DNA from: Promethearchaeota archaeon
Lineage (GTDB): Archaea > Asgardarchaeota > Lokiarchaeia > Sigyniarchaeales > SOKP01
DNA: 13,957 nt
Assembly: GCA_019058015.1 (NCBI GenBank)
Contig: JAHLWH010000115.1
Coordinates: forward strand, 1-13,957
Direction of reading: 5' to 3'
This document shows positions 4,639-6,466 of this stretch, piece by piece (the stretch's first letter is position 1; each line of letters begins with the position of its first letter). The notes below the pieces were generated by a model. It did no database searches. It saw nothing but the letters and a program-made list of their open reading frames with translations, and was not told where the DNA came from. A program made the position numbers and the translations under genes.

Positions 4639-4670
4639 TTAGTCACACTCTGCCAACCTAGTTGTCGTTC

Positions 4671-4687
4671 ATTTTTTTAAAAAAAAT
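4671..4687. terminator. Possible bidirectional oligo-T terminator between convergent osmC-like and dnaG genes
   Basis: T7 run followed directly by an A8 run gives a U-tract on both strands. Weak evidence given the AT-rich background. Confidence 0.35.
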
Positions 4688-4700
4688 AATTTCTGAATTA

Positions 4701-5950
4701 TTAAATCTTCAATACTTTTATTTGTCTCGGGATTTTCAAATCTTCTTCTATTCCAACGCAAATGATTGTATCTATTTTCATATTTATTGCCAAGGAAATT
4801 AGCCTTTTAGATAAAATACCATCTAATATTAAGTATTTTATATTTGAAAATTCACTCAAATTATCAAATACTTCTGCAGTATTTAATTCAAAAAGAATAT
4901 TTTCCTCTGAGTCAATTCCAATTGCTTTTTTTGTTCCTTTAGAATTAGAAATATACTCAGTAATTTTTGACCCTTTATCGAGTTTCAATATTTTTAAAAT
5001 ATTTTTATATTTATTCTTCGAATCTTTAATTTTTTTTTCAATTACTGGTTTCCCTTTATGTGATGTATCTACTGATGAATTCTTATTATTAATTATCTCT
5101 GAAATTGGTCTCTTATTTTGAAGTGCTTTAATCATCTGTTTTCTTGTTAATTCTTCAACTTCGAGACCATCAGGAGCTCTTGCAACATAATCAAGGTGTG
5201 CTACTTGTAATAATTCATTTAAGATTATTGTGCCTCCCCGGTCTCCATCTAAAAAAGCAGTAATTGGGCTTTTATTATGAGTTAATTTAATAATTGACTT
5301 AGGAATTTGAGTACCTTCCACAGCAATAGCATTTTTGATATTTATACGCATTAAATTTAAGACATCTGCTCTTCCTTCAACTATTAAGAGATCTTGGCTA
5401 ATATCAACATTAGGACCTGCAGGTAAATTTTCAGGCCCCCATTTTTTAATTTCACTAAGTCTTATATCTTGAGAAATTTGTTCTTCAATTTCCCTAGGTT
5501 CGGGACTATTCTCATCCCATTTTTTTAATAATTCTGTTGCTCGTTCAATAATTTGTTTTCTTTTGTCTTCGCGAATATCTTTGATATCATTAAGGTCAAT
5601 TTGTGCGGAACAAGGACCTACTCGACTCACGGTTTCTATTGTCGCTGCCAATAAAACGGTCTCTTTTCTTGTTAGACTTGAAGGAATAATTATTTTGCCT
5701 TTAGATATTCCCTCTTCGGTCGTTAATTCGACCTCAATTCTTCCTATTCTCCCACTTTTTTGTAAATCTCTTAAGTCTAAATCCGATAAAAGACCTTCGG
5801 TTTAGGCGATATGACCGAAGTGGCTATTTATCTTTGCCCAAAAATGGCACCGACAATATCGCTCTTTTCAACCACTCCATTTACTTTATAATCTGCTATG
5901 ATATGATATTTCGTAGTGAAATTAGAAGTATAATGATCATTATCTGTAAT
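4701..5950 (-). CDS. dnaG: Archaeal DnaG-type primase / exosome-associated protein; spliced CDS complement(join(4701..5801,5834..5950)), ~405 aa
   Basis: Exon 1 encodes ...FTTKYHIIADYKVNGVVEKSDIVGAIFGQ. Exon 2 continues TEGLLSDLDLRDLQKSGRIGRIEV...IIIPSSL...LLAATIETVSRVGPC and the TOPRIM motifs IVEGRADV, AIAVEGT and FLDGDRGG. The ORF track (TTG 5651) misses the first ~89 codons. The start is probably ATT 5950 or ATA 5953. Confidence 0.93.
5802..5833 (-). other. Putative 32-nt bulge-helix-bulge-type (relaxed HBh') mRNA intron in dnaG
   Basis: mRNA reads ...UUU GGGC AA^A GAUA aauagccacuucgguca UAUC GCCU AA^A CCGAAGGU. It has a 4-bp central helix GGGC/GCCU, two AAA 3-nt bulges and an inner helix GAUA/UAUC. 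Cuts after bulge nt 2 give GGG CAA|ACC GAA GGU = G-Q-T-E-G. Confidence 0.85.
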
Positions 5951-5956
5951 TATAAA

Positions 5957-5967
5957 ATCACACTCCT
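5957..5967 (-). promoter_or_regulatory. Shine-Dalgarno-like element of dnaG (AGGAGTGTGAT)
   Basis: Resembles the archaeal GGAGGTGAT consensus. Lies 3-6 nt upstream of in-frame ATA/ATT codons, with an in-frame TAG at 5966-5968. Confidence 0.6.
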
Positions 5968-6413
5968 ATTTTTTGTAATTAAATTTTTATCTAAATTTTT
6001 CAATTTTTAAATGAATAAAATATATAATAGTGAAATAATAATTGATTTACACTAAATTCGTCATATAAATTATTTCTATTAATAACATAAGTATAGAAAT
6101 TATTAAATTTATTTTTTTGGGTTTTAAATTCAAATCTACCTATTACTTAGGTATTATTCTATTATTTAATTTTTAATTGAATACATCTATATCATGTATT
6201 GGGATGAGAAAATAATTGAAAAGATTTTTAAAACTCATATTCATAAGAAATTCAAGATAATATATAAAACAAATTTTGGTAGATTCTATTTCTATTTCAA
6301 AGAACTTAATAAAAACGAAATAAAAGGTAGAGTTGTATTTTTTCCTTCATCTTATTGAAATTTTACTAATATTTTTTTTAAACCAGTTATAAAAAATAAC
6401 AATCTTAAAATTA

Positions 6414-6430
6414 GGAAACAATTTTTATAG
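6414..6430 (+). promoter_or_regulatory. Candidate BRE + TATA box for the Get3/ArsA gene
   Basis: GGAAACAA-TTTTTATA about 37 nt upstream of ATG 6467. The AT-rich background limits confidence. Confidence 0.35.
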
Positions 6431-6466
6431 ATTCAACTCTTTTTTATTCCAACAAAAAAATTATTT

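Follow-up and report, generated by a model that had tools for sequence, protein, structure and literature searches.

The dnaG locus of a Promethearchaeota archaeon raises the question of how an intact DnaG protein can be made from a gene whose reading frame is broken. The locus lies in a 13,957-nt stretch of DNA (GCA_019058015.1, contig JAHLWH010000115.1; this whole stretch is called the window, and all coordinates refer to its forward strand). Read on the minus strand, the gene runs ...GGT GCC ATT TTT GGG CAA, then AGATAAATAGCCACTTCGGTCATATCGCCTAA, then ACC GAA GGT CTT..., and the inserted 32 nt (5833..5802) lie exactly at the Gln/Thr boundary of the motif VGAIFGQ-TEGLL. The frame read into the insert gives AGA and then TAA (5830-5828), and a length of 32 nt also shifts the frame. 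An earlier note, made from the sequence alone, had proposed that the insert represents an intron of the bulge-helix-bulge (BHB) type spliced out of the mRNA, and this proposal is supported by the genomic nature of the insert, by helix covariation, by an RNA contig, and by the presence of the enzyme genes. We hold with high confidence that the 32 nt are a real BHB intron, which interrupts the coding region of dnaG, a single-copy gene in this Asgard archaeon of the Loki type (Promethearchaeia). The intron is very probably spliced by the endonuclease EndA and the ligase RtcB. The host had been taken to be a probable Asgard archaeon, in agreement with its named relatives, which are metagenome-assembled genomes of Promethearchaeota/Promethearchaeia of the Loki type. 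The gene is divided as follows.

5834..5953, minus strand: dnaG exon 1, about 39 to 40 codons, ending in ...GGG CAA (Gly-Gln); the probable start is ATT at 5950-5948 or ATA at 5953-5951.
5802..5833, minus strand: the proposed BHB intron, AGAUAAAUAGCCACUUCGGUCAUAUCGCCUAA, 32 nt, with an in-frame UAA at 5830-5828; an RNA contig skips these 32 nt, and relatives carry homologous inserts at the same site.
4701..5801, minus strand: dnaG exon 2, 366 codons plus stop, beginning with ACC GAA GGT (Thr-Glu-Gly) and encoding the Toprim domain.

When the 32 nt were removed in silico, the translation read ...SDIVGAIFGQTEGLLSDLDLR... and then stayed open for 366 codons up to the stop codon at 4703-4701; the joined exons encode ...KSDIVGAIFGQTEGLLSDLDLR... 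across the former insert site, and the predicted exon-exon junction is ...TTTGGGCAA followed directly by ACCGAAGGT.... The assignment of the gene to dnaG was borne out by NCBIfam profile NF003108 (archaeal DnaG, 419 positions), which matched both exons: residues 15-40 of exon 1 aligned with model positions 1-26 (E 9.9e-9) and exon 2 aligned with positions 27-418 (E 6.4e-115). Because exon 1 ends at position 26 and exon 2 begins at position 27, the two pieces abut exactly, and the insert between Gln and Thr, its in-frame TAA, the frameshift, and the otherwise intact flanks are all seen as the earlier note had described them. A check for a second, intact copy found only one dnaG in the genome (3.84 Mb in 283 contigs, estimated to be 94% complete). 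Since the unspliced mRNA stops at a UAA one codon into the intron, production of DnaG depends on splicing. Purifying selection acts on the exons: the ratio of nonsynonymous to synonymous divergence (dN/dS) between the window and three congeners was 0.22-0.26, at a synonymous divergence (dS) of 0.13-0.14, and over the same comparisons the 32-nt intron showed 0 differences. The dN/dS values together with the unchanged intron suggest that the gene is no pseudogene and that the intron is constrained.

In the proposed mechanism, GGGC of the pre-mRNA, which precedes the Gln wobble position, would pair with GCCU near the 3' end of the intron, and this pairing would expose two AAA bulges, one on each strand and separated by 4 bp. 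A hairpin formed by the intron (GAUA/UAUC plus GCC/GGU) would close the inner side. EndA, encoded by two paralogs, would then cut after the second base of each bulge, and RtcB would join ...GGG CAA to ACC GAA..., restoring VGAIFGQ-TEGLL. The elements of the fold, all on the minus strand, are listed below.

5836..5839, minus strand: central helix H, 5' strand GGGC, formed in exon 1 by the Gly codon and the first base of CAA; all 45 of the distinct aligned sequences pair here, with covariation at the third base.
5804..5807, minus strand: central helix H, 3' strand GCCU, in the intron, paired with GGGC.
5833..5835, minus strand: 5' bulge AAA; predicted cut 5834/5833, compatible with the joint in the RNA contig.
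5801..5803, minus strand: 3' bulge AAA, followed by two unpaired C residues (5800-5799); predicted cut 5802/5801.
5829..5832, minus strand: inner helix h', 5' strand GAUA, pairs with UAUC.
5808..5811, minus strand: inner helix h', 3' strand UAUC, pairs with GAUA.
5814..5824, minus strand: hairpin inside the intron, made of GCC (5824-5822), the loop ACUUC, and GGU (5816-5814); part of the BHB fold of -7.7 kcal/mol.
5840..5845, minus strand: outer helix h, 5' strand AUUUUU (Ile-Phe codons), pairs with GAAGGU at a two-base offset in 89.3% of alignment cells.
5793..5798, minus strand: outer helix h, 3' strand GAAGGU (Glu-Gly codons), pairs with AUUUUU.

The pairings GGGC/GCCU and GAUA/UAUC and the AAA bulges at 5835-5833 and 5803-5801 that had been claimed for the window are all present in its sequence. 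Two additional unpaired bases separate the 6-bp outer helix from the rest, which in effect enlarges the 3' bulge to 5 nt. Compared with the strict hBHBh' arrangement (outer helix, bulge, central helix, bulge, inner helix), h' comprises 3-4 bp extended by the hairpin and h comprises 6 bp but is shifted by 2 nt, so that the motif is relaxed and HBh'-like, resembling the substrates of broad-specificity EndA. Its earlier description as a relaxed HBh' form was fair, with the qualification that an outer helix, AUUUUU/GAAGGU, is present two bases out of place.

The fold was then compared across relatives. A first sample of 30 dnaG loci, drawn from the 39 of the 41 nearest genomes that had a dnaG match, included 17 with an insert of 29-40 nt at the exact Gln-Thr junction and 13 without; a second sample of 40 further junctions, which had been selected for a short open frame, included 35 with an insert of 29-43 nt and 5 without. 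The 52 insert-bearing loci from both samples (inserts of 29-43 nt) gave 45 distinct sequences for the structure alignment. The central helix, GGNC before the Gln wobble position with GNYU two bases 5' of the 3' junction, was fully paired in all 45, and the Gly wobble base and its intron partner formed C:G in 28 sequences, A:U in 7, U:G in 6, G:C in 2, and G:U in 2, with none unpaired. For the full proposed structure, 89.8% of cells were paired, versus 26-52% when the partners were slid, and the covariation score was 0.147 versus 0.097 in shuffled alignments, with none of 500 shuffles reaching the observed value. Pairing rates were 100% for the central helix, 76.7% for the inner helix, 94.7% for the intron hairpin (AGCC/GGCU or its equivalent in the relatives), and 89.3% for the outer helix at its two-base offset. 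Within the inner helix, the G-C pair was kept in 45 of 45 sequences, the A-U or G-U pair in 43 of 45, and the U-A or C-G pair in 38 of 45; the fourth pair was kept in only 12 of 45. When RNAalifold was run on the alignment without an input structure, the 4-bp central helix was its sole prediction. Within the window's genus, one compensatory change was seen (G:C versus A:U). The alignment of related genomes that the earlier note had suggested as a check thus yielded inserts at the same site, an invariably paired central helix, and compensatory changes.

The same alignment bears on where the intron would be cut. EndA cleaves after the second nucleotide of each 3-nt bulge. Applied to the window, this rule gives GGG CAA ACC GAA GGU, as had been predicted, and in every relative, cutting both bulges at this position restores the frame and regains CAR-ACN (Gln-Thr). 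In one relative (L043) the 3' bulge is AUA, so that symmetric cuts one base earlier would replace the invariant Gln by His (CAU); cuts one base later are excluded by sequences in which U or G is the last base of the 5' bulge. Because these sequences exclude the first and third positions, the cut is placed after the second bulge base, and on this comparison the exact phosphates cleaved in dnaG mRNA would be those between 5834 and 5833 and between 5802 and 5801.

Sequencing runs bear on both the insert and its removal. The stretch, or part of it, is held by 20 runs, of which four were compared: X19 (RNA), X5, X7, and X20, the last being labeled RNA-Seq but probably DNA and counted as DNA. Almost none of the sampled words occurred in the RNA runs X21, X23, and X24, and the comparison did not include them. 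DNA contigs from X5 (4650-6050), X7 (5396-6012), and X20 (5653-5905), belonging to three further studies, run through the insert uninterrupted, with no insertion or deletion listed for them; together with the insert in five of the five genomes of the genus, they confirm that it is genomic and not an artifact. The metatranscriptome run X19 yielded a contig of 530 nt at a depth of 34.4, with 9 other letters in 436 nt (about 98% identity), and this contig skips 32 nt; its joint links 5800 with 5833, can be shifted by 3 letters, and covers the predicted exon junction 5801/5834. The check for RNA across the junction thus returned a contig, a single one, from which exactly 32 nt are missing, and this contig, from one run and a related strain, agrees with precise excision at the cut sites in the bulges and joining of the exons there. 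An organism without the intron would be another source of such a contig. The insert is present in each of the four other genomes of the genus. Divergence of the dnaG exons from the window is 4.6-5.6% of nucleotides for the three nearest of them, and the remaining one shares only 72% DnaG protein identity with it. That insert-bearing congeners stand at 4.6-5.6% or more, compared with the approximately 2% divergence of the X19 contig, counts against an intron-less strain as its origin.

Several points weigh against a BHB intron spliced from dnaG mRNA. The motif is not canonical, its outer helix being displaced by two bases. In the window's genus, the BHB fold has a predicted energy of -7.7 kcal/mol, versus -11.4 kcal/mol for a rival fold in which CUUCGGU of the intron (5814-5820) pairs over 7 bp with ACCGAAG of exon 2 (5795-5801) on the minus strand. 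Because many of the sequences are close kin, the double changes by which the central helix stays paired amount to few independent events. The RNA support is thin, consisting of one assembled contig from one run and from a strain of about 98% identity that is known from that RNA contig alone, and RNA libraries can hold DNA. The joint in the X19 contig is ambiguous within the AAA repeats; because AAA stands at both ends, it can be placed at four equivalent positions. Past 5881, the contig carries 30 nt corresponding to the opposite strand of 5901-5930, an inverted end that may be a strand-switch or fold-back artifact near the transcript 5' end or may be a misassembly. Finally, EndA, rather than another nuclease, is the presumed cutter. 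The CUUCGGU/ACCGAAG helix was considered as a conserved switch and rejected: in the relatives it was paired in 69.2% of cells, a level reached by 141 of 500 shuffles, and it showed no covariation. Because its pairing in relatives is no better than in shuffles, it appears to be a by-product.

The identity of the enzymes underlies the alternative that survives best, which we nonetheless consider improbable. It holds that the intron is removed by an RNase and a ligase other than EndA and RtcB or by a structure-specific editing activity, and it draws on the relaxed motif, on the BHB fold not being the predicted lowest-energy fold, and on the fact that we infer the role of EndA and RtcB. The geometry, however, is that of an EndA substrate, with a 4-bp helix between 3-nt bulges and second-base cuts that restore the frame in every relative, and the same geometry recurs in an unrelated intron at this site in a distant family and in a second gene, on contig C61 (both described below). 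Genes for both enzymes are also present in the genome, which encodes two EndA-domain proteins (PF01974; 100 and 67.6 bits; open frames of 200 and 207 amino acids) and one RtcB (PF01139; 577 bits). The two paralogs are consistent with a broad-specificity heteromeric EndA; Asgard archaea are described as having an (alpha-beta)2 EndA with an L1 insert that is linked to relaxed BHB cleavage (PMC5829648). ARAGORN called introns in 23 of the 38 tRNA genes of the genome, although some of the calls (tRNA-Stop, tRNA-Pyl) are doubtful. RtcB would be the ligase, and the excised dnaG intron would presumably be circular.

A still less probable alternative is that the insert is kept in the mRNA and skipped by translational bypassing, as in phage T4 gene 60 or the yeast mitochondrial byp elements, with the X19 contig then deriving from the DNA or RNA of an intron-less strain. 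Bypass elements have matching take-off and landing codons, and their gap is retained in the mature mRNA. A stop codon does stand directly after what would be the take-off region, a hairpin lies in the gap, intron-less dnaG alleles do exist (83 of 134 genomes of family f1 lacked the insert pattern described below), and the RNA contig without the gap is only one. The codons, however, do not match, CAA standing before the gap and UAA/ACC at its end, and a conserved exon-intron helix with covariation is not needed for bypassing; as for an intron-less source of the contig, the insert is present throughout the genus (five of five genomes), even though the X19 contig lies closer to the window than its congeners do. 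With no landing-side match to CAA and an RNA contig that lacks the gap, a bypass element was rejected. That dnaG is a decaying pseudogene, or its insert an assembly artifact, has next to no probability, for although gene callers would see a broken gene and exon 1 has no ATG, GTG, or TTG start, this is the sole dnaG of the genome, its dN/dS values are low (0.22-0.26), it has no other defects, an ATA/ATT start behind a GGAGTG box is conserved in the genus, and the insert is found in DNA contigs of three runs and in 55 genomes.

Splicing of a BHB intron from dnaG mRNA is thus the reading that we carry forward, and its occurrence among Asgard archaea was surveyed with a census of 400 Asgard genomes. 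The search pattern was GGNGCNNTNTTYGGNCAR, a gap of 14-44 nt, and ACNGARGGN, and the same pattern reversed served as the control. One match each was found in 55 of the 400 genomes, versus 0 of 400 for the reversed control, an excess well beyond chance, in a census that is blind to inserts of >44 nt and to genomes whose flanking motifs deviate from the pattern. The matches fell in family f1 (51 of 134 genomes, plus the window's genome), family f3 (1 of 1), and the distant family f33 (2 of 2), and none were found in the other 30 families. Within f1, every genome matched in the window's genus (4 of 4, plus the window's own) and in genera g4 (4 of 4), g9 (2 of 2), g8 (1 of 1), and g5 (1 of 1); the state was mixed in g3 (6 of 7), g2 (18 of 42), and g11 (15 of 54); and this pattern found no insert in g6 (0 of 10), g7 (0 of 6), or g10, g12, and g13 (0 of 1 each). 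In family f33 (genomes G398 and G399; L135:738-769 and L136), an unrelated 32-nt intron occupies the same Gln-Thr site with the same layout, comprising a central helix GGCC/GGUU, two bulges, and an inner helix CCGA/UCGG. To judge from these sequences, the shared site may reflect either very old ancestry or repeated insertion where codons supply half of the BHB motif.

The history of the intron was followed on a tree of 74 distinct exon 2 proteins (27 with the intron), obtained from 92 loci after identical, motif-less, and <300-amino-acid rows were dropped. Intron presence required at least 10 changes, at least 3 of them forced by well-supported branches, versus about 22 changes with shuffled labels, and none of 500 shuffles was as low; intron state is therefore clustered but has changed repeatedly. 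The tree is unrooted and does not by itself distinguish gain from loss. The dnaG intron sequences within f1 are alignable, and the probable history is a single ancient gain in f1 followed by precise loss on several occasions. For the cbf5 intron, an old gain with secondary precise losses has been proposed (PMC2738675). As a side observation, UCGGCU occurs twice in the interior of the dnaG intron in many relatives, where the inner part of the intron is also similar to the last bases of exon 1 (GCCAUUUUCGGCCAA versus GCCAAUUCGGCUUAA).

A scan of the genome for further split genes, as the earlier note had recommended, used the BHB motif with an ORF (open reading frame)-joining test and was compared with a composition-matched decoy. 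It gave 508 matches for introns of 14-120 nt, versus 720 in the decoy, and 1737 versus 2481 in a relaxed scan for short introns; because there is no enrichment over the decoy, the motif alone cannot find introns. By eye, only dnaG and one other gene were convincing among the 34 strict and the 55 top relaxed matches, the rest resembling gene boundaries or noncoding frames. The other gene, resembling AIR synthase, was the top scan match.

G000 contig C61:15749-15778 (= L134:1249-1278), plus strand: a probable second BHB intron, 30 nt, of the canonical hBHBh' form.

The C61 insert is predicted to fold with a central helix ACGU/GCGU, bulges AAU and AAC, a 9-bp inner helix, and an 11-bp outer helix, and it links frames of 160 and 307 codons in phase 1 (..CGFHV-T-RAALRDL..). 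Two Pfam models, AIRS (from position 43 of 112) and AIRS_C, match the downstream piece, placing it in the AIR-synthase superfamily; the upstream piece alone had no profile match. Among 29 loci of relatives that have both parts, 23 are continuous (...CGFHVTRAA...), including those of two genomes of the window's genus, and 6 of the 29, the window's genome counted, carry an insert of 29-30 nt at the same point. On these sequence comparisons, the C61 insert appears to be a second, canonical BHB intron. Two of the six insert-bearing genomes (G020 and G024) are without the dnaG intron. The genome would thus have at least two such introns. Both the dnaG and the C61 intron vary within a genus, certain species having the intron and others lacking it precisely, and their distributions do not match. 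We lean slightly toward the view that BHB introns are a recurrent, fast-turnover feature of protein genes in Loki-type Asgard archaea rather than a one-off. The C61 intron begins with the same 9 nt with which the exon ends (TTCACGTAA); this repeat and those in dnaG may reflect palindromic helices or may hint at an origin by local duplication.

The start of dnaG is itself unusual in the window. Upstream of the conserved N-terminal block there is no in-frame ATG, GTG, or TTG; the sole such codon that follows the TAG at 5968-5966 lies 14 codons before the end of exon 1. In the window's genus the frame opens with ATA ATT (ATT ATT in one species), 3' of a GGAGTG box.

5961..5966, minus strand: Shine-Dalgarno-like GGAGUG, preceding the ATA/ATT start and conserved in five genomes of the genus.

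In one congener a TAA stands immediately 5' of ATA ATT, and in another a TGA stands one codon (TTA) 5' of ATT ATT; outside the genus, GTG lies at or beside the homologous start codon in 16 of the 21 f1 loci checked. An AT-rich spacer of 513 nt (5954-6466) separates dnaG from a divergent ArsA/Get3-like gene. A structured dnaG leader was considered for this spacer but found no support in single-sequence folding of the minus strand of 5954-6466, which gave a z score of +0.67 and no excess stability. No homing endonuclease or mobile gene was seen beside the intron, the neighbors being ordinary housekeeping genes (OsmC, ArsA/Get3, an M28 peptidase, FtsY, and prefoldin). No tRNA genes were found in the window, nor did any Rfam family reach its gathering score anywhere in it. 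A self-splicing group I or group II intron, which has a ribozyme core of hundreds of nucleotides, was also rejected, the insert being only 32 nt long and the window having no Rfam match.

In the literature, no described dnaG intron and no BHB intron in an Asgard protein gene were found, as the earlier note had also held for dnaG, in a search outside of which lay subscription journals and supplements. Besides a case in a 5' untranslated region (5' UTR), only the cbf5 intron had been reported as of 2020, according to the available text of one paper (PMC7714728); the accessible part of a 2025 paper cites only cbf5 work (PMC12397907), and that of a 2026 preprint on Asgard tRNA introns makes no mention of mRNA or dnaG (bioRxiv 10.64898/2026.10.13.758758). 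The cbf5 intron is thus the only coding-sequence BHB intron that was found described for archaea, and dnaG would be the second host gene and one of very few archaeal protein-coding genes known to need BHB splicing. With transcript-level support, the dnaG intron indicates that mRNA splicing by protein enzymes is no crenarchaeal oddity. It would occur in the lineage closest to eukaryotes and resembles HAC1/XBP1-type splicing, which likewise uses RtcB (PMC8718801). In practical terms, the essential dnaG is truncated by standard gene callers in 55 or more of the genomes searched. The covariation between codon wobble and intron is a clean natural experiment on the constraint that an exon's sequence places on a splice motif, and the polymorphism within genera offers material for studies of intron gain and precise loss. 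Archaeal DnaG is described as an exosome subunit (PMC7667871), and the intron may have a regulatory role, for example in tying the supply of DnaG and exosome to splicing capacity. If such introns are indeed recurrent, the closest prokaryotic relatives of eukaryotes would routinely express some essential proteins by way of enzymatic mRNA splicing, gains and precise losses would be continuing today, and splicing may gate the expression of an RNA-exosome component.

Three known systems invite comparison. A BHB intron was reportedly described in the cbf5 pre-mRNA of Crenarchaeota by Watanabe in 2002 and by Yoshinari in 2006. The intron of this pseudouridine synthase gene occurs in Desulfurococcales and Sulfolobales (Yokobori 2009, PMC2738675). 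Like that of dnaG, it is short, of the BHB type, within the coding sequence, and frame disrupting, so that splicing is required; its hosts likewise have a two-subunit EndA, its presence within the clade is patchy, and both gene products are proteins of RNA metabolism. The dnaG case differs in that it concerns another gene, in Asgard archaea rather than Thermoproteota, and in that splicing is known from a metatranscriptome contig rather than from reverse transcription-PCR or an in vitro assay. The possibility that the dnaG intron is a homologue of the crenarchaeal cbf5 intron was rejected, since the gene is dnaG and the cbf5 of the window's genome is uninterrupted (TIGR00425 model positions 4-319 in one 329-amino-acid frame); the likeness is one of mechanism only. 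The intron of Haloferax volcanii HVO_1309, like that of dnaG, is described as being cut from an mRNA, rather than from tRNA or rRNA, by the archaeal splicing endonuclease, but it lies in the 5' UTR and rebuilds no frame, whereas the dnaG intron lies within a conserved protein motif (PMC7714728). Noncanonical tRNA introns with relaxed BHB motifs (HBh', hBH) are described in TACK and Asgard archaea, where they are cut by an (alpha-beta)2 EndA with an L1 loop (PMC5829648; PMC11291895; bioRxiv 10.64898/2026.10.13.758758). The dnaG intron shares with them its motif, its size range, and its presumed enzymes, and its host lineage is rich in tRNA introns. Unlike them, it interrupts an mRNA coding substrate in which half of the motif consists of codons (Ile-Phe-Gly-Gln and Thr-Glu-Gly), and because of this the helix is maintained through a synonymous codon position.

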